Below, piece after piece: positions 8,977 through 52,644 of a DNA stretch of 64,000 nt. Under the pieces are notes generated by a model. The model did no database searches, was not told the DNA's origin, and saw only the letters and a program-made list of their open reading frames with translations. The number at the start of each line of letters is the position of its first letter. The stretch's first letter is position 1. A program made the translations under genes and the position numbers. The DNA comes from a phage: the sequence record PZ386969.1; one strand, written 5' to 3'.

Positions 8977-8999
8977 AAGCCCTCAGCCGAGGGCTTTTT
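8977..8999 (+). terminator. Rho-independent terminator
   Basis: Stem GCCCTC/GAGGGC loop AGCC followed by TTTTT. Confidence 0.65.
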
Positions 9000-15657: not shown

Positions 15658-15677
15658 AGAGGCTCCGGCCTCTTTTT
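15658..15677 (+). terminator. Rho-independent terminator
   Basis: Stem AGAGGC/GCCTCT loop TCCG followed by TTTT. Confidence 0.6.
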
Positions 15678-15695
15678 CATTTCCAGCATTTGGTG

Positions 15696-15701
15696 TATAA
15701 T
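15696..15701 (+). promoter_or_regulatory. Sigma70-type -10 element
   Basis: Exact TATAAT directly after the terminator; possible -35 TTTTCA 16 nt upstream. Confidence 0.35.
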
Positions 15702-15744
15702 GGAACCGTTCCCCATGAGCGGAACCTATCTGAGGATACACCAA

Positions 15745-16245
15745 ATGAAATCCATGGTCAAACGTAAAGTCGAAATCTCCCTGACTGCCCATATTGAAAT
15801 GGTCCAACAACTTATCCTGGATGCGTATGAAATCCAGAAAGATCGCCAATCGAGGGGAGGTGTGACGGACCCCACCTGTCCTGGAAACATACTGTACTAT
15901 CGCATGCTGCGCCAGACTGGGCACACCGCCGCGCTGAAGAAGATTCTGTCCTATGATTTCCAGACAGAGAACAACCTCAACATCATGGGTGTCTTCCATA
16001 GCGTTAGTGAACGCGATTCTTTCTTCCGCTCCCGAGCAGGCGCGGATGTATCATTGCCCGATGTAGACAAGAAACAGCACACGACAACCATCTCCCATTA
16101 CATGGGCACGGGCATCGATAAAGCAAATATCATCGTGTTCTCTGATACGTTGCATGACCCCAAGCGCCTTGCATCTGCGCATGAAATGCTGCGGGAAGGT
16201 CGCAGCGCCCTCACTAATTTGACTTTAGTAGTGTTTCTGGGCTAG
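15745..16245 (+). CDS. Hypothetical protein
   Basis: Start taken at ATG 15745 (GAGGA upstream) because track start 15700 overlaps the TATAAT; start uncertain. Confidence 0.45.
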   Translation: MKSMVKRKVEISLTAHIEMVQQLILDAYEIQKDRQSRGGVTDPTCPGNILYYRMLRQTGHTAALKKILSYDFQTENNLNIMGVFHSVSERDSFFRSRAGADVSLPDVDKKQHTTTISHYMGTGIDKANIIVFSDTLHDPKRLASAHEMLREGRSALTNLTLVVFLG

Positions 16246-22842: not shown

Positions 22843-23094
22843 ATGATATGTGCGTTTGATCAAGAATTTTATAAAAAGGTCAATATTCTAAAACTTGTCA
22901 TGTCTGGAACTAGTTCGAAAGAAGTATCAGAAATTTATTGTATTTCACAGGCCAGGGTGAGCCAGATTTTGAGGGAAACTATAGGGTTACTTTGCCCAGA
23001 GATAGAAATTAAGCGCGTCAACAAAAAGTTCATTGATGAAAATTATTATACAGTAAAAGCCAAAATAAAGTGTTGGGAGAATAAACATGTATAA
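22843..23094 (+). CDS. Small helix-turn-helix protein
   Basis: HTH-like segment SSKEVSEIYCISQARVSQILRE; sits in a locally AT-rich stretch. Confidence 0.4.
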   Translation: MICAFDQEFYKKVNILKLVMSGTSSKEVSEIYCISQARVSQILRETIGLLCPEIEIKRVNKKFIDENYYTVKAKIKCWENKHV

Positions 23095-26934: not shown

Positions 26935-27147
26935 ATGATCATTTCAGGTTACACCATCGATCTTTATTGTGAATGCTCAGATTGCAAGGCATGCAGTTGG
27001 GCTTGGGAAGAGCATCACCCCAAGTGCGGGTTCAAACAATACACTGGTGAGACTTGGGGTGATTGTGTCAAACAGGCGCGAGCAGACGGCTGGCAAATCG
27101 GGCGCGACAGGCATACCTGCTACGCCCCTGGCCACAAAAGAAGTTAA
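26935..27147 (+). CDS. Small Cys-rich protein
   Basis: CxCxxC and further Cys/His pairs. Confidence 0.4.
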   Translation: MIISGYTIDLYCECSDCKACSWAWEEHHPKCGFKQYTGETWGDCVKQARADGWQIGRDRHTCYAPGHKRS

Positions 27148-27767: not shown

Positions 27768-27817
27768 AATCTAGTCCTAAATAGCCATAACACTCTATCT
27801 ATTTAAGGGCTGAGACC

Positions 27818-32695: not shown

Positions 32696-33355
32696 TCAGA
32701 TTCCGTGGGCTTGTATTAGCTCACGGAGTCTCTGTTTTGAATATGTGGTATCCTCATCCGGAACCACAGCATTCGTCTTCCTGAGCAAGAACGCCTCTGA
32801 GTTCCAGTAGATGTCATCACGCAGAATCGTATCGTATAGATGAATGAAACCAACGATCTTGTTCAGACCGACAAGGAACCAAATCGGGAACTTCTTGATG
32901 ATGATGTCTGTCAGCAACGGTGGATGACCTGTACCCGTCCCCTTGATGTACTCAATGAAGGTGCAGTTGCGCTCCCTTATGGCAGGGATCATCTCCCGCT
33001 CGAACTCCTCAAGGAAGTTATATGTGAAGTTCTCGTACAGCTTACGGTATTCATCATAATTGGCCTGAGCCTGGCGTGTAAGCAATGTCGTCACCCAGGT
33101 CTTGGGTGATTTGATGAAGTTGGCAATGATGTAGTTCTCTACCACTTCACCCTGTGTTGACTCGAACCGACGGGCAAGGCGAGCAAACTGTTTGCACACG
33201 GCCTCCTTCGCCAAGAACGTCTCGAACTTGTAATTCATCGGTCCATACAAGCTGTAATCGAAGTCCTTAGTGGTGAAGTGCAGCTTGATCGCCATGAAGA
33301 CACAGTAAACGTTGAACGCCCGTTCATACTCCATCTTTTGCCACTCTGTCAGCAT
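32696..33355 (-). CDS. Helicase loader (T4 gp59-like)
   Basis: N-terminal pattern YCVFMAIKLHFTTKDFDYSLYGPMNYKF parallels remembered T4 gp59; next to DNA ligase. Confidence 0.55.
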   Translation of the reverse strand: MLTEWQKMEYERAFNVYCVFMAIKLHFTTKDFDYSLYGPMNYKFETFLAKEAVCKQFARLARRFESTQGEVVENYIIANFIKSPKTWVTTLLTRQAQANYDEYRKLYENFTYNFLEEFEREMIPAIRERNCTFIEYIKGTGTGHPPLLTDIIIKKFPIWFLVGLNKIVGFIHLYDTILRDDIYWNSEAFLLRKTNAVVPDEDTTYSKQRLRELIQAHGI

Positions 33356-33603
33356 TTGCGTTCCTCTTCTTTAATAAATTGCAATAACTCTTCCATCAGC
33401 CCTTTCTTCTTGATGAACTGTAACACTAGGATGAAGCGACGGAAGGAACGGGGGACAACACGATAACCCTTCGCCCAGTAGTTCACAACATTGGAACAAT
33501 CCAATAAACGAGCCAGCCCAGATTGTGACACCCCGAGGCTCAGCAGAACCTTGTACATGTACTTCTTGTCATTTACCGGAAGCTCTTTCATTCTTAAACT
33601 CAT
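33349..33603 (-). CDS. XRE-family helix-turn-helix protein
   Basis: HTH segment LGVSQSGLARLLDCSNVVNYWAKG. Confidence 0.5.
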   Translation of the reverse strand: MSLRMKELPVNDKKYMYKVLLSLGVSQSGLARLLDCSNVVNYWAKGYRVVPRSFRRFILVLQFIKKKGLMEELLQFIKEEERKC

Positions 33604-33830: not shown

Positions 33831-34064
33831 TCACACCTCTTTGTGTTTCTTCATCTTGCGAACAGTGCCCACAAACCCAAGATCCTTCCCGCAATGGGTG
33901 CAGATAGCATGGCAAGCGTGGTTCTCACGATAGGTGCTGTGTTTGCAGCGCCATTGCTTGAACGCCGAACGGGCAACTAGGATCACGGCGATCAAGAAGA
34001 CGATGCCGGATATCTGAAGTTCAACCAAGAACTTCGCCCACCAGAAACTCATGTACTCACCCAT
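33831..34064 (-). CDS. Small membrane protein with Cys-rich tail
   Basis: Start set at ATG 34064 (MGEYM), 2 nt after ligase stop, GGAGAAGG upstream; track start 34154 overlaps ligase. Confidence 0.35.
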   Translation of the reverse strand: MGEYMSFWWAKFLVELQISGIVFLIAVILVARSAFKQWRCKHSTYRENHACHAICTHCGKDLGFVGTVRKMKKHKEV

Positions 34065-35487
34065 TTCCCTTCTCCAACAGGAATGCAATGTTTTCGATGT
34101 ATGCTTTCTGTATCGCATAGACTTCATCCAGTGTGTTGGCCACTTTCTTGTCAATGCGGACTTCTACAAGGCGAGGTAGGAACAAAGACTTCATCGCATC
34201 ATCTGTCTTATCCTGTACGCCATTGGAGAGCACTGCGGCGATCTTGCCAATGTAGTCGCCCTGGTTCTCCCACATATGGCGTCTCAGCTCATCTGAGATC
34301 CCTGATACGCCAACAACAAGCAGGCTGTCGGAAGTTTTACAAATCAGTGAGCCAAAAGTCTTGGCGTGTTTACCCTTCTTGTCAGCCTCGTTGAAGCCCA
34401 CAATTTCAAGGTCACACTCAACCTCCATCTTCAGCTTCAGACCTTCAGAAGAAGTCCCATCTTCCCAAGGCATGTCGGCGGCCTTACATATCGTGCCTTC
34501 TTCTTTGCGAGCCAGCGCGTCTTTGAAGTGGTCGACGGCTTCGGCAAATGAGTGAACAACATGAGTTTCCTGAACCTGAACCAGACCGTCGTCTTCATCA
34601 AACAGTTGCTGGATAATATCGAAGCGGCGCTCATACGGGGTGTCCACGCGCTGGGCGTTGAACCAGTTGTCGTACGGGATAACATCCCACACCCGGTAGA
34701 TCACCCGATAACGATCTTCTAGGGGTTCTCCTGTCTGAATCACGCTGTTGAGTTTACCGTTACCGACAGCACGAGGCAGGATGGTATTCGACTTGAGGTC
34801 AACAACGAGAAGTTCACCATGGAACACACTCTCACCAATCCCCGCATCGTAGATCAGGTCTTTGAACACCAGTGAAAGGTTATCAACCGAACCACCTGCG
34901 ATAAGGGAACCGGAGCGAGAGCGAATCTCAGGCTCTTTATTGTACCGACATATGATGTTGGCGAACATACCGTCTGACTTCAGCTGGCTGTAGACGCCGC
35001 GCTTGAAGTCCATCTTCTTCAGCAGGTCAATCGTCATGTTGTCATAACGATGATATGGAAGGATGTTGATCAGGCGTCCAGTGCCTCCGGCGGCGTTGAA
35101 TGCAGCGTTGATGCCCTTCTCAGCGATACCCGCCTTGATATCACGGTCTAGGATCATCTGAATGAGTTCGTGGTATTGGGGATCCATCTTCAGGGCGACA
35201 GAGGCCAACAGGGCATCAGCCTTTTGGCCACCGACAAGGCGCTGCGCCATCTGGTCGAGGACGTCATAGACTTCGCTGATGTCATCAGTCTTCTCACGGA
35301 CGAGCATGCGAGGATACGCGCTGAGCTTCAACTCAGTCCGATAGAACGACATCATTGGGTCATAGACATACTGCAGGAAGTCTGCCAAGTCTGGGTTGTT
35401 CTTGAATGCTTCGGTCAGCACGGCTTTCTTCGCATTGCTGCCTTTGGTTTCGCGAAGTCGGTGGACTGTTTCAAGGATAGGGATCAT
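34057..35487 (-). CDS. ATP-dependent DNA ligase (T4 gp30-like)
   Basis: Adenylation motif KSDG (YSQLKSDGMF); N-terminus parallels remembered T4 DNA ligase. Confidence 0.85.
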   Translation of the reverse strand: MIPILETVHRLRETKGSNAKKAVLTEAFKNNPDLADFLQYVYDPMMSFYRTELKLSAYPRMLVREKTDDISEVYDVLDQMAQRLVGGQKADALLASVALKMDPQYHELIQMILDRDIKAGIAEKGINAAFNAAGGTGRLINILPYHRYDNMTIDLLKKMDFKRGVYSQLKSDGMFANIICRYNKEPEIRSRSGSLIAGGSVDNLSLVFKDLIYDAGIGESVFHGELLVVDLKSNTILPRAVGNGKLNSVIQTGEPLEDRYRVIYRVWDVIPYDNWFNAQRVDTPYERRFDIIQQLFDEDDGLVQVQETHVVHSFAEAVDHFKDALARKEEGTICKAADMPWEDGTSSEGLKLKMEVECDLEIVGFNEADKKGKHAKTFGSLICKTSDSLLVVGVSGISDELRRHMWENQGDYIGKIAAVLSNGVQDKTDDAMKSLFLPRLVEVRIDKKVANTLDEVYAIQKAYIENIAFLLEKGNG

Positions 35488-35506
35488 GTGGTGTCTCCAG
35501 GGTTAT

Positions 35507-35539
35507 ATGTGCTGCTATTATAACCCTGGGGACTTCAAT
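35507..35539 (-). promoter_or_regulatory. Perfect 11-bp inverted repeat containing a TATAAT on the - strand, upstream of ligase
   Basis: CCAGGGTTATA-11 nt-TATAACCCTGG; - strand TATAAT at 35532-35527, 40 nt upstream of ligase ATG. Confidence 0.5.
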
Positions 35540-35601
35540 AGATTATTGGCGGGTACGGGATCTTGCTTGGCTGATAATGACCGCAAATGTTTCTGTATCC
35601 A

Positions 35602-36162
35602 TCATGAACCCTCCGCCCAGACAAAGCCGTATTTGTTCAGTAGATCCACGGTTTCACCACGAGCGCGAGCCACGATAGATTCTACTGATTCTTCCACCTC
35701 GAGTGGTGGGCAACCAGCCTTTTCGTACGTGTTAAGCAAGAGAGCAAGTTCTTTTACAAACTCTTCTTGTTCCTCTCCTCCAAAGAACCACATCCGCAGA
35801 TCGTCGCGTTCCCCGTGCTTGTTCAGGGAAGCCATATTCACGTACACGTAATCAGTTTTCTGAACAACGCCGTTTATCTCCGGCCATCGCAACCCAGCCA
35901 TCGCATAATTGAAGAATTCCGAAGGGGTGACTTCATCCGACAAATAATACAAACGGAAGTCACCGCTGGGGCCATGTTTGCAAGTTCTATCCAGCATTAT
36001 TTTGTGGATGTCAATACGGTCTCGCTTCAAGACTTCCCGTTTCTTCAGTCGACCTCTCAGCCAGGCACTGCCAATACACAAAAGAACGAAAGCAGTAGCA
36101 CCAGTGAGTATGTTGAAAGAATCAATAATGTTCATAAGATCCCCGAAGTGATAGAGGGGCAT
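35602..36162 (-). CDS. Membrane-anchored hypothetical protein
   Basis: Hydrophobic N-terminal helix; start uncertain (internal M at MNIIDSF). Confidence 0.45.
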   Translation of the reverse strand: MPLYHFGDLMNIIDSFNILTGATAFVLLCIGSAWLRGRLKKREVLKRDRIDIHKIMLDRTCKHGPSGDFRLYYLSDEVTPSEFFNYAMAGLRWPEINGVVQKTDYVYVNMASLNKHGERDDLRMWFFGGEEQEEFVKELALLLNTYEKAGCPPLEVEESVESIVARARGETVDLLNKYGFVWAEGS

Positions 36163-36176
36163 AAGCCCCTCTGATG

Positions 36177-36785
36177 TTATTTGCTCAGGCTGGCGAGGTA
36201 GTTGTCGGCTTCGATAGACGACGGGCTGTTGGCGGAGTAGCTCGAATCAGCGATTTCGGTTTCGCGCAGGATGGCATCGATATCGATGGTGGTCATACCA
36301 GCGGCATAATCGATATCTTCAGGGAGCACCAGACCCAGGTCGTTCGTCTCTTTCTGAACACGAACCAGCTCGAGATTGGACTTGACTTCGTCCAGTTTGT
36401 CACCCAGCTGGATGATCGCACCGTTCAGTTTGTCGCTGCTTGCTTCGATGTCCTTCACCTGAGCCAACAGGGCTTCACCGATACGGCGGCGATGCAGAAT
36501 AATCAGGGCGTCGGCGCGGGTTGGTGTGACACCACGAGCGATGGCGTCCTTCAGAACTTCTTCGCGCTTGGCGGCTTCACTTAGGTTCTGTTCTGCGGTC
36601 TTCTTCAGCTTGACGCCGTTGCGGACGTTGGTGACACGGGCTTCCTCCAGGCGACGGATTTCGTCAGACAGCTTGCGAGCAGCCAGGTTCAGGCGCTTTT
36701 CGGTGTCGGTCAGTTTATCCAGACCTGCGGTGACGTTAGCTTCAACAGTGGTGAAGATGCGTTTCAGTAAGTTTTTCAGTGACAT
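36177..36785 (-). CDS. Coiled-coil protein (PspA/IM30-like, tentative)
   Basis: Long helical heptad-like sequence; PspA family suggested by eye only. Confidence 0.35.
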   Translation of the reverse strand: MSLKNLLKRIFTTVEANVTAGLDKLTDTEKRLNLAARKLSDEIRRLEEARVTNVRNGVKLKKTAEQNLSEAAKREEVLKDAIARGVTPTRADALIILHRRRIGEALLAQVKDIEASSDKLNGAIIQLGDKLDEVKSNLELVRVQKETNDLGLVLPEDIDYAAGMTTIDIDAILRETEIADSSYSANSPSSIEADNYLASLSK

Positions 36786-44221: not shown

Positions 44222-45264
44222 ACTACACCTTCCAGGAACTTAGGATCAACGATCTTGCGGTCAACCGGAGAATGGGTGAGCGCGGTGTTCAAGCCATGAT
44301 CCTGAATCAGGTCCAGGTTAATGAGCTTTTCGTTCAGTTTGCAGTGCAGACAGTACGCCATCTGTACAATCAGGCCGCGATCCGCATCGTATTCCTTCAG
44401 GTGAGCAACCACAGTTTCCCACGGGCTACCGATATCACAGTGATGAAGCACACCAGTGAACAGATTGCGGATATGGTTCTGGTTGGTCACGTTCGTGAAG
44501 TGGATCATGGAGTTGATGAACCCAGCTTCTACTTTGGTGTCCTTCGTGATCTTGCCCAGCTGCTTCTGGCTGACTTCATTGTTGTAGTAATGAAGATTGT
44601 TAGAGAATAGCTTGTACTGACCGACATCAACATCTAACACCCGAGCAATCACTTCCTGAAGAATAGAGAACTCAATGAAGTTGATTGAACTCATCCCCCA
44701 CAGAACATCCTGTGAGCGATTGATGACCGTCAGGTTCAGACGACCTTCAACGATGGCGAACAACAGAGCCAGGTTACACACCATGTCCTTAGTCTTTGCT
44801 TCGCCGCTCTCGCTGAACTTCGCCAGACCAGCATCCGAATCTAGAGCCGGGTCATAGATGGTGAGGTACGCCTGACGAGTGTTTGGGTTCTTGCGCAGGC
44901 GGTTGATAACGCTATCCAGCTGGCCATGGGCGTACAGACGCGGACCATAAGCAGCTCGCCATGTTACCCCATCATCCGAAAAGTTAGCAGCGCGAGGCAA
45001 TACGCGTGACAGGAACTTTATGTCGTTGCGGCCTGACAACACCCAGAAGGTCTCGCCGATGGCAGCGATAGCCGATGAGTTGCGACCTTCAACGGAGAGC
45101 CAGCGGTCACGAATATCGGAAACAGTGATAGTCACACCATCAAGGAAGCGGGTGCTATCAGTATTGATTTCAGCATTACCAGGATCAGATTCGATCCCGA
45201 ATTCACGGATAGCCAAGACAGCCTGCTTCAGCATGTCATTGTTGTTAATTGCTTTGATTTCCAT
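44218..45264 (-). CDS. Pyrimidine deoxynucleotide hydroxymethylase (ThyA superfamily, T4 gp42-like)
   Basis: ThyA-fold motifs RQAYLTIYDP and NRSQDV; catalytic Cys in MVCN context as in T4 dCMP hydroxymethylase (FMCTN), not the canonical PCH. Confidence 0.65.
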   Translation of the reverse strand: MEIKAINNNDMLKQAVLAIREFGIESDPGNAEINTDSTRFLDGVTITVSDIRDRWLSVEGRNSSAIAAIGETFWVLSGRNDIKFLSRVLPRAANFSDDGVTWRAAYGPRLYAHGQLDSVINRLRKNPNTRQAYLTIYDPALDSDAGLAKFSESGEAKTKDMVCNLALLFAIVEGRLNLTVINRSQDVLWGMSSINFIEFSILQEVIARVLDVDVGQYKLFSNNLHYYNNEVSQKQLGKITKDTKVEAGFINSMIHFTNVTNQNHIRNLFTGVLHHCDIGSPWETVVAHLKEYDADRGLIVQMAYCLHCKLNEKLINLDLIQDHGLNTALTHSPVDRKIVDPKFLEGVV

Positions 45265-45935
45265 CAGATACTCCCAAAATCACGACAGAGGAATGCCATC
45301 ACAGCCTGGTCTACCGTTAGGCCGTGAGACTTCATCATACCCGCAGCCACCGTAGGGAACAAGTCTTTATGTCGTTGACGATGGTCATGAACTCTCTCCC
45401 ACTTCTCGACCACCAGACTTTCATTGAAGTCCACACCGCCGTTACGTGATTTAACGCGGGTGATACACGTTTCAAGAGGAGTGTCCATAAAGAGCACAAC
45501 CAATTCACGTGGTGGGCGTGTCAGACGGGGGATCCAAGAACTCAATAATGTGGATGGAATGATACCTTCGAAAATCACATCATATTTCAAGTATTCTGGT
45601 TGGTCAGCAATAGACAACGCGAACAACATCTGCTCAGTGTCCTTCAGGGAATCAACCCCCTTGGACTTCGACTTGTCATATTTACCGATACAGACCACGT
45701 TGAACGAAGGACAGACAGTCAGCATGACCTTGCCATTATGGGTCACGACATACGCCTGAGGATCCCTCTCCGCCAGCTGAGACGGCACAGTGGATTTACC
45801 GCTACCATTGGAGCCTTTGACGTAGTAGATTTGCCCTCGTGCTGGGTAGATCCCCTTTACGACGGGTGGTTTAAAGAATGTGTGGACGGGGCGCTTCATC
45901 AACCCCTTCAGGGAGTAGGACATAAACTGCTCCAA
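45264..45935 (-). CDS. P-loop kinase-like protein
   Basis: Walker A YVKGSNGSGKST; several aligned blocks with the 1799-2704 protein. Confidence 0.55.
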   Translation of the reverse strand: MEQFMSYSLKGLMKRPVHTFFKPPVVKGIYPARGQIYYVKGSNGSGKSTVPSQLAERDPQAYVVTHNGKVMLTVCPSFNVVCIGKYDKSKSKGVDSLKDTEQMLFALSIADQPEYLKYDVIFEGIIPSTLLSSWIPRLTRPPRELVVLFMDTPLETCITRVKSRNGGVDFNESLVVEKWERVHDHRQRHKDLFPTVAAGMMKSHGLTVDQAVMAFLCRDFGSI

Positions 45936-45968
45936 TAAACAAAAGGAGCTGCTATTATAGCAGCCCCT
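45936..45968 (-). terminator. Rho-independent terminator (- strand)
   Basis: Stem GCTGCTAT/ATAGCAGC followed on the - strand by TTTTGTTTATTGG. Confidence 0.55.
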
Positions 45969-45997
45969 TCATCTTTTGAACAGTTTCTGAACTTAAA

Positions 45998-48840: not shown

Positions 48841-48851
48841 TTGTCAACTCC

Positions 48852-48859
48852 TATAAATA
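48852..48859 (+). promoter_or_regulatory. T4 late-promoter-like TATAAATA
   Basis: Exact TATAAATA 35 nt upstream of the GTG start of a tail-tube-fold gene. Confidence 0.45.
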
Positions 48860-48893
48860 ATAACAGTTATTTTATTTAAGTGGAGTCCTCACC

Positions 48894-51705: not shown

Positions 51706-52006
51706 GGAACACCCCCACGGTTGTCAGTACGAAACGCACCATAATGATAACCAGCAACATCACTGTAGAAAACACTACACGCTTGATCATTTTATCGCGC
51801 ATGTGGATGAACTGATATGAGAGGATAGCCTCGGCCTGTTGATCGGCACGAACGTTCGTGTCACGATGTGGGGACAGCGTGTAGAAGTTGATCTGGTACA
51901 CATACGCATGAACCAGAGTGAAGAACGACTTCACCCAGACCAAGACAACCACTAACAACAAAGCGAACGTCAGGAAGTTCGCCAACAACCAATAATCGAC
52001 CATCAT
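51692..52006 (-). CDS. Membrane protein
   Basis: Multiple hydrophobic helices. Confidence 0.4.
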   Translation of the reverse strand: MMVDYWLLANFLTFALLLVVVLVWVKSFFTLVHAYVYQINFYTLSPHRDTNVRADQQAEAILSYQFIHMRDKMIKRVVFSTVMLLVIIMVRFVLTTVGVFHAAV

Positions 52007-52593
52007 ATACCTCTGTTGAAGTCTGGATTATTCTCAATGAAGTAAGAGCCACAAGCCATTATCGCAAACGAATCCACGAGGTCATCGATTGGCTTAGGAT
52101 CCTTAACTTCCAACATATCCATTATACCGCGCATATTAACATTGAACAGCGACTCGAAGTGAGCGATCATGGCGTGTTTATCCGCGTTGCCCTTGTCGGT
52201 GAACATCTTCTTCACATGGGATGGCGTCACGATCTGGAAGTCGAAATTGTTACGGCGCAGGGCTTGCTTCAACAGTGAGGTATTCTCTGCGGTCTGGCAT
52301 ATGTTGTTGGAGTTCTTAGAGTTGCCCATAGCATACCCTTCAAGAGTGATCACATCCGGCTTCTCAGTCAACAGGACAGCCTCAGCCCATTTACAGATGT
52401 TATAGAAGCGTTCTTCTGGGGTCTCCCACTTCGGTTGCTTCATGATAAGGATATTCTGACGAATCTGAGTGCAGTACTTCTCCACAGTATAATATGCGTA
52501 GAAGCGCAGATGATCAAAATCAAGAGGGTCTTTGTCATCCCAGAAGCACAGGGATGGACAGCCATAGGAGTAGTCGATTCCGCAATATTTCAT
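52003..52593 (-). CDS. RuvC-like Holliday junction resolvase
   Basis: YCGIDYS N-terminus, ITLEGY and DDLVDSFAI acidic motifs. Confidence 0.45.
   Translation of the reverse strand: MKYCGIDYSYGCPSLCFWDDKDPLDFDHLRFYAYYTVEKYCTQIRQNILIMKQPKWETPEERFYNICKWAEAVLLTEKPDVITLEGYAMGNSKNSNNICQTAENTSLLKQALRRNNFDFQIVTPSHVKKMFTDKGNADKHAMIAHFESLFNVNMRGIMDMLEVKDPKPIDDLVDSFAIMACGSYFIENNPDFNRGI
52121..52146 (-). promoter_or_regulatory. Promoter-like motif TTCAAT-N14-TATAAT (- strand), internal to a coding region
   Basis: - strand TTCAAT 52146-52141, TATAAT 52126-52121, about 115 nt upstream of the next - strand gene start. Confidence 0.4.
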
Positions 52594-52644
52594 GTAAATA
52601 GCCCATAACGAAGTTTCATTGGTGTATGGGCTATTTACGCCGGG

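Follow-up and report, generated by a model that had tools for sequence, protein, structure and literature searches.

A perfect inverted repeat directly in front of the DNA ligase gene of this phage raises the question of which molecule it serves: the DNA, as a protein binding site, or the RNA, as a hairpin. A first-pass annotation of the window (the whole 64,000-nucleotide stretch analyzed here) had offered three readings, namely an operator for a dimeric regulator, a processing site or a structured promoter.

The ligase gene and the genes upstream of it

The window belongs to an Ackermannviridae (ViI-like) phage and, across this region, is 97.5% identical to Escherichia phage vB_EcoM-ZQ1. The gene downstream of the repeat had been called a DNA ligase, and a PF01068 match bears this out and identifies the enzyme as ATP dependent. 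The gene sits in a minus-strand block for replication and nucleotide metabolism whose members are primase, NrdAB, a gp32-like SSB, thymidylate synthase, UvsX, a gp41-like helicase, the ligase and a gp59-like helicase loader. The genes just upstream of the ligase are accessory (a membrane protein, a PspA/IM30-family protein and one without assigned function) and vary between relatives. Two features frame the locus:

34057..35487, minus strand: ATP-dependent DNA ligase gene, 476 aa, T4 gp30-like (ATG 35487-35485; PF01068)
35543..35605, minus strand: 20-aa remnant ORF, MMDTETFAVIISQARSRTRQ-stop, whose ATG shares bases with the stop of the gene upstream (ATGA) and which fills the upstream half of the intergenic gap

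The gap had been described as 114 nt (35488-35601) between two minus-strand ORFs, which holds when only ORFs of 40 aa or more are counted. The last codons of the remnant ORF correspond to the final part of a longer gene that relatives carry, and its stop lies 9 nt before the stem described below. Most relatives examined have a real gene that ends at the counterpart of 35543 (6 nt further upstream in some Kuttervirus), so the effective spacer in front of the ligase is ~55 nt. Between the upstream genes and the ligase stem no terminator-like site was found, which makes read-through from the upstream genes into the ligase gene plausible.

The PspA/IM30-family gene (36177-36785) and the membrane-protein gene (35602-36135/36162), both on the minus strand, are present in ZQ1 and absent from AV101. 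At the AV101 junction, the start codon of the first gene leads to inside the tail of the lost small gene, which leaves the 35605-35543 remnant. The membrane-protein gene probably starts at 36135 and not at 36162, given a PHROG match that begins at residue 10 and a GGGGA before the ATG at 36135.

Coordinates of the repeat and its occurrence by chance

The repeat CCAGGGTTATA - 11 nt - TATAACCCTGG is present in the sequence as reported, but the coordinates given for it, 35507-35539, were off by +10. The perfect 11-nt arms occupy 35497-35507 and 35519-35529 around an 11-nt loop (35508-35518), and with one mismatch the arms reach 15 nt (35493-35507 and 35519-35533). The repeat had also been taken for the longest perfect one in the window, where it is in fact exceeded by one 14-nt and two 12-nt repeats:

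52594-52607 / 52625-52638: 14-nt perfect inverted repeat
15687-15698 / 15736-15747: 12-nt perfect inverted repeat
27014-27025 / 27052-27063: 12-nt perfect inverted repeat

Chance occurrence was estimated from Markov-simulated 64-kb sequences, which were searched for perfect inverted repeats of 11 nt whose loop did not exceed 40 nt. At least one such repeat arose in 44% of the simulations, with a mean of 0.7 11-mer hits, so the repeat by itself is statistically unremarkable. The real window holds five distinct perfect repeats of at least 11 nt with a loop of at most 40 nt, which is an excess over the simulations. What is non-random about the ligase repeat is its position and its conservation across genera.

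Anatomy of the ligase leader

On the coding strand, the 55 nt ahead of the ligase ATG read TAA-TCTATTGAAGTC-CCCAGGGTTATAAT-AGCAGCACA-TATAACCCTGGAGAC-ACCAC-ATG, where TAA is 35545-35543. The leader contains the following elements, listed in the direction of transcription:

35531..35542, minus strand: upstream box TCTATTGAAGTC, conserved, at about -32 to -21 relative to the predicted start
35519..35533, minus strand: 5' RNA arm GUCCCCAGGGUUAUA (perfect core 35519-35529), which carries the first four bases of the -10 hexamer
35517..35522, minus strand: -10 hexamer TATAAT, perfect, sigma-70-type, with four bases closing the 5' arm and two opening the loop
35508..35518, minus strand: 11-nt loop AUAGCAGCACA, with the last two TATAAT bases, a variable discriminator-like stretch and the predicted start
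35510, minus strand: predicted transcription start, A then C, both invariant, 7 nt past the -10 and in the loop
35493..35507, minus strand: 3' arm UAUAACCCUGGAGAC (perfect core 35497-35507), with the ligase Shine-Dalgarno sequence within
35495..35498, minus strand: Shine-Dalgarno sequence GGAG of the ligase, 7 nt ahead of the ATG and inside the stem

The most telling of these features, absent from the first-pass annotation, is the ligase Shine-Dalgarno GGAG inside the 3' arm, where three of its four bases pair with 35528-35531. The TATAAT had been noted on the minus strand 40 nt upstream of the ATG; the hexamer is there (35522-35517), but its first base lies 35 nt from the A of the ATG at 35487. 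A G stands at -14 ahead of it. No TTGACA-like -35 was found at the ligase TATAAT, where the hexamer at -35 to -30 is TAATCT; a conserved TATTGAAG box stands 10 nt ahead of the -10 instead.

The stem is followed by no U-tract: the following bases are ACACCACAUGAUCCC and the tail is ACACCACAUG. It thus lacks the combination of a G+C-rich stem and a U-tract that marks an intrinsic terminator. Scans of the 33-38 kb region for sigma-70 consensus promoters and for terminators called the element as neither, and a search of 35350-35700 against the covariance models of Rfam 15 gave no match with E up to 1. We also considered TATAATAG as a gp55-type late promoter and rejected it, since it gave no gapless alignment to the (C/T)TAAATA motifs before the late genes of the window.

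Conservation across genera

Lack of conservation in related phages had been named as evidence against a role for the repeat; the element proved to be conserved. The 55-nt block is kept in Agtrevirus-like phages, Limestonevirus, Kuttervirus and Taipeivirus, where the DNA of the ligase region is only ~75% identical. BLAST alignments of the ligase 5' end cover the element and stop at window positions 35544-35580, and the upstream genes beyond are unrelated. Across 14 distinct aligned sequences, drawn from four genera, the TATTGAAGTC box, the TATAAT, the AC 7-8 nt past the hexamer, ATAACCC and GGAG are invariant or nearly so. The TATAAT is invariant at all six bases, the unpaired AT in the loop among them; A43/C44 (alignment A2), the AC just mentioned, are likewise invariant, and the rest of the loop is variable. 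The stem takes in exactly the GGAG, at a fixed distance from the ATG, in every phage examined.

Other relatives depart from this arrangement. In representatives of more distant genera (phiEa2809, phiMAM1 and one contig from IMG/VR), a (T/C)TCAAT box is followed by CAGG(G)T(T)AAAAT at the same place, and the long stem is missing. Two of these three have another short hairpin instead, with its 5' arm just past the hexamer and its 3' arm at the start codon; phiMAM1, from a distant genus, has no comparable hairpin. The inner stem is broken in IME250, and in the Vibrio relatives the ligase gene comes directly after the previous gene, without a spacer. A metagenome scan with a ligase profile returned only one close relative and four irrelevant loci, and scans of IMG/VR returned mostly phages already in the set, plus one informative distant contig (L061).

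Pairing in the RNA and symmetry in the DNA

Each arm of the repeat has a function of its own (the -10 and the spacer in one, the Shine-Dalgarno sequence in the other), so part of the conservation is expected even without pairing. The stem could then be a functionless by-product: the promoter GGGTTATAAT and the Shine-Dalgarno leader ATAACCCTGGAG would be conserved separately and be complementary by accident. The ease with which a perfect 11-nt repeat arises in simulated 64-kb sequences (44% of them) and the independently functional motifs in both arms are compatible with such an accident, and so is the weakness of the covariation. Only one stem pair, which varies as A-U, G-U and G-C, has changed on both sides, and 43 of 500 shuffles match the observed covariation score. 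The covariation is therefore weak, consistent with a stem and not proof alone; since GGGTTAT is fixed by promoter function, there is little room for covariation.

The pattern of substitution nevertheless argues against an accident, because the variable arm positions change so that pairing holds. Over the 15 proposed stem pairs, 92.4% of the alignment cells are paired by standard pairs, and three pairs vary on one side only, with a G.U retained each time. A C.A mismatch is confined to the window clade, where it favors the antisense strand. ATAACCC is invariant without a known role of its own, next to flanking loop bases that vary, and this is most simply explained by pairing with GGGTTAT, itself fixed by promoter function. 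Predicted folding also stands against the by-product reading: the isolated hairpin of the window reaches -18.9 kcal/mol (z = -5.7), z runs from -4.4 to -6.7 across the four phages computed, and the sense hairpin is similarly stable in all six arm haplotypes. A like architecture, moreover, recurs at other genes of the window (see below). We regard a functionless stem as highly improbable, and the repeat as, with high probability, real and functional.

If the stem is functional, it could still act as DNA. A dimeric phage or host regulator might bind the palindrome as an operator and repress or activate the ligase promoter. The arms in the window clade would suit such a protein, being perfect 11-mers with centers 22 bp apart (~two helical turns) that overlap the -10, and small proteins without assigned function are encoded nearby, one of which (22843-23094) has sub-threshold helix-turn-helix and sigma-70 region 4 matches. 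The symmetry decays in other genera, however. Only 11-13 of the 15 positions remain Watson-Crick symmetric in the DNA of Limestonevirus, Kuttervirus and Taipeivirus, and the one-sided changes there are all transitions that retain a G.U in the sense RNA. The sense hairpin stays at a uniform -16.5 to -21.3 kcal/mol over the six arm haplotypes, and the antisense hairpin ranges from -12.4 to -23.7 kcal/mol. This strand asymmetry of stability, together with the reduced DNA symmetry, argues against a DNA operator. The sequence comparison indicates that the perfect palindrome of the DNA is a local state of the window clade and that the property conserved is the pairing of the sense RNA.

Two other expectations of the operator reading fared no better. 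Further copies of the arm had been suggested as something to look for, and across the 64-kb window the arm sequence is single-copy, at the ligase site. The nearby "HTH proteins" that had been put forward as binding partners lack support: ORF 33349-33603 has no Pfam match, and hence no DNA-binding domain match, and the matches of 22843-23094 all fall below threshold. Binding of the repeat by these proteins was thus rejected for want of domain support. An operator is in our judgment very unlikely. Of the three readings of the first-pass annotation, the operator drew the least support; the structured promoter came closest, with an invariant TATAAT, an invariant A 7 nt on, and a statistically strong family of sites with the -10 in a hairpin.

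What has been described to this point, from the anatomy and its conservation to the pattern of pairing and the folding predicted for it, is read directly from the sequences.

A probable promoter combined with a stem-loop

We think it probable, with moderate confidence, that the ligase leader is a composite cassette of promoter and stem-loop, in which the ligase has a promoter of its own and the hairpin hides the ribosome site on read-through RNA. At the DNA level, the TATAAT, the G at -14 and the TATTGAAG box near -30 would form a -10-driven promoter for the host RNA polymerase. Transcripts from this promoter would begin at the loop A, 35510, and would thus lack the 5' arm, which would leave the Shine-Dalgarno GGAG free. 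Read-through RNA from the variable accessory genes would carry both arms and fold into a 14-15 bp stem (~-19 kcal/mol) that buries the GGAG. The ligase would then be poorly translated from read-through RNA, and the stem may attenuate such RNA as well. The net effect would be a ligase output set by its own promoter and insulated from the upstream gene set.

Predicted accessibility agrees between phages: in all eight, the mean probability that the Shine-Dalgarno region is unpaired is 0.00-0.20 in a 120-nt read-through RNA versus 0.35-0.57 in RNA from the predicted start, and the 26-nt leader from A35510 is predicted to be essentially unstructured. Conserved pairing of the sense RNA also implies selection on RNAs that have both arms, i.e., read-through transcripts. 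From these patterns we infer an active promoter with its start site, the presence of read-through RNA and the effect of such RNA on translation; a search of the literature for Ackermannviridae transcript 5' ends, RNA-seq or reporter data found nothing usable. Translational coupling from the 20-aa ORF was considered as the main mechanism and rejected. Its stop lies 9 nt before the stem, where a terminating ribosome would barely reach the first pairs, and in Kuttervirus coupling from the upstream ORF is further disfavored by an upstream stop that is 6 nt farther away.

The hairpin could instead act on the upstream transcript only, as an attenuator or terminator, as a 3'-end stabilizer or as an RNase III-type processing site between the accessory and ligase mRNAs. 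The overlap with the Shine-Dalgarno sequence would then be incidental, or processing would free it. Intergenic processing hairpins are a familiar feature of phage mRNAs, which counts in favor of such a role, as do the conserved sense-strand stem and the T-run that stands behind roughly half of its sister elements elsewhere in the window. A precedent exists in RB49/phi1, where stem-loops that overlap the -10 are strong terminators or attenuators in reporter assays (PMC2839356). The ligase stem, in contrast, runs into ACACCACAUGAUCCC without a U-tract and was not called by the terminator scan, and against a role confined to the upstream transcript, the GGAG falls exactly in the stem, with a fixed distance to the ATG, in all phages examined. 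Usual RNase III substrates are also longer than a 14-15 bp stem, which speaks against processing. We hold a role on the upstream transcript alone, the strongest of the rival readings, to be possible, though unlikely.

Precedents in T4 and its relatives

The proposed cassette has two precedents. [quoted passage not shown] 2010, PMC2839356; Comeau et al. 2014, PMC4122927). [quoted passage not shown] PeSL units end in the Shine-Dalgarno sequence and ATG of the next gene, terminate or attenuate transcription, occur in several copies along the genome, and border variable gene sets (PMC2839356; PMC4122927).

The ligase element resembles a PeSL in that (i) it has a sigma-70-like -10, a perfect TATAAT that is invariant in the 14 sequences from four genera; (ii) its stem-loop is stable (-18.9 kcal/mol, z -5.7) and has G-runs and C-runs, with the 5' arm over the -10; (iii) it is intergenic and ends in a Shine-Dalgarno sequence (35498-35495) and the ATG at 35487; (iv) it belongs to a repeated family of 9 + 3 sites, 7 of 11 with a hairpin around the -10, although the arm sequence itself is unique; and (v) it stands at a border of variable genes, where similarity ends at 35544-35580 and AV101 lacks two upstream genes. 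It differs from a PeSL in the absence of a -35 at 15-18 nt upstream, in place of which a TATTGAAG or TTCAAT box lies ~10-14 nt before the -10. Its stem differs as well, with an 11-nt loop, no U-tract and an extension into the Shine-Dalgarno sequence, and so does the phage family, Ackermannviridae, in which we found no description of PeSLs in the literature.

The second precedent comes from the T4 genes e (lysozyme), soc, 49 and I-TevI. In long upstream transcripts of these genes the Shine-Dalgarno sequence and/or the AUG is paired, and translatable RNA comes from a promoter located in the stretch of DNA that codes for the helix's 5' strand (Uzan and Miller 2010, PMC3014915). The predicted geometry at the ligase is alike: the GGAG lies in the predicted stem, with a probability of being unpaired of 0.00-0.20 in eight phages, the 5' arm takes in the -10, and transcription would begin in the loop, at A 35510. 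The T4 genes differ in using late promoters (TATAAATA, gp55-dependent), which delay a late function, whereas the ligase has a sigma-70-type TATAAT and is a replication gene. Ligase is an early or middle function, and a reason to silence its read-through RNA is harder to see than in the case of T4 lysozyme or endonuclease VII. By analogy with these two systems, the ligase element would join the idea of the PeSL cassette to that of ribosome-site sequestration in T4.

The mechanism is thus already known from T4 and its relatives and hence not new. If it is correct here, an essential replication gene is under its own control beside fast-changing accessory genes, and the locus provides a first concrete handle on early/middle promoters of ViI-like (Ackermannviridae) phages. 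Phages of this type are widely used for biocontrol and as engineered reporter phages, so native promoter/insulator cassettes would be of practical use. The promoter family to which the element belongs is of somewhat greater interest than the ligase element itself.

A family of promoter-like sites in the window

TATAAT occurs 24-50 nt ahead of several replication genes on the correct strand, among them nrdA, the SSB gene, the helicase gene and others. The pattern TTCAAT-N10-17-TAWWAT was observed nine times in the window versus 0.16 expected, and ATTGAA-N9-16-TAWWAT three times versus 0.2 expected, at the following positions:

305, 4725, 7710, 8998, plus strand: TTCAAT-type sites (also written TTCAAT(AAA)-N12-16-TATAAT)
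37198, 39746, 50974, 52146, 62283, minus strand: TTCAAT-type sites
9002, 21946, plus strand: ATTGAAG-10 nt-TAT(A/T)AT sites besides that of the ligase, with equal spacing

The motif family sits before nrdA, the SSB gene and several small genes. Read on the opposite strand, the TATTGAA of the ligase box gives TTCAATA, the box that precedes other TATAAT sites of the window, and the two overlap at 8998 in a palindrome, TTCAATTGAA. The -10s linked to a motif lie in stronger hairpins than other TAWWAT sites (mean z -3.5 vs -0.34; Mann-Whitney p = 0.0009). At 7 of 11 motif-associated sites the stem brackets the -10 hexamer, and a T-run follows at about half.

The box stands too near the -10 for a sigma-70 -35, and its spacing is like that of a MotA box. 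In T4, MotA-dependent middle promoters have a MotA box ~12 bp upstream of a sigma-70 -10. The sites of the window share with them a good -10, no -35, a conserved box centered near -30 and a location before DNA-replication genes, and differ in the sequence of the box, which is unrelated to TGCTT. ViI-like phages have been reported to lack MotA and AsiA homologs (PMC3184105), and the ViI-like genome papers of 2011-2012 left early and middle promoters unidentified or gave them only tentatively (PMC3184105, PMC3121705, PMC3296691). Speculatively, and we consider this rather improbable, the TATTGAAG/TTCAATA box and a -10 within an inverted repeat may define an undescribed class of Ackermannviridae promoters, read by the host polymerase with a phage factor analogous to MotA/AsiA. 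In such a class the hairpin or cruciform might join in recognition, and the ligase element would be among the most conserved members.

The 83-aa ORF at 22843-23094 (plus strand) has Pfam matches to sigma-70 region 4, GerE and HTH_28 that stay under the cut-offs, at ~16.5 bits. If it is region-4-like, so small a protein would be a candidate reader of the box near -30.

Other promoter-like hairpins and late-type motifs

Two of the longer repeats, at 15687 and 52594, share the design of the ligase element: the 5' arm is promoter-like, and a start codon stands at the other arm. At 15687-15747 (plus strand), the 5' arm shares bases with a perfect TATAAT (15696-15701), and the last bases of the 3' arm form an in-frame ATG (15745), with GAGGA before it; the gene here probably starts at 15745 rather than 15700. 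A terminator-like hairpin with a T-run (15658-15678, plus strand) precedes this repeat.

At 52594-52638 (minus strand), where the longest perfect repeat of the window lies, the arms enclose a 17-nt loop and the 5' RNA arm carries the late-promoter-like GTAAATAG, of the form (C/G)TAAATA. The 3' arm runs up to the ATG of a gene for a RuvC-like Holliday-junction resolvase (52003-52593; PF02075). This hairpin is conserved in Taipeivirus, Kuttervirus and Limestonevirus (Menlow, Mutine, XF4), with a matched loss of one base in each arm. It is a close parallel to T4 gene 49 and looks like the counterpart of the arrangement there, where early RNA conceals the ribosome site and the hairpin contains a late promoter.

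On the minus strand at 45943-45969, before gene 45264-45935, lies a terminator-like hairpin with a T-run and a TATAAT in its loop (GGGGCTGC TATAAT AGCAGCTCC TTTTG); it has the 12-mer TATAATAGCAGC in common with the ligase element. The late-type motifs of the window are TATAAATA at 48852 and (C/G)TAAATA at 27777 and 52631. Two divergent late spacers hold such motifs: 27768-27817, between gp4-like and gp48-like genes, has the T4-like late motifs CTAAATAG (plus strand) and TTAAATAG (minus strand), and 48841-48893 has the motif at 48852 on the plus strand, before a gp54-like baseplate gene. TAAATAG is restricted to these two spacers and the resolvase hairpin.
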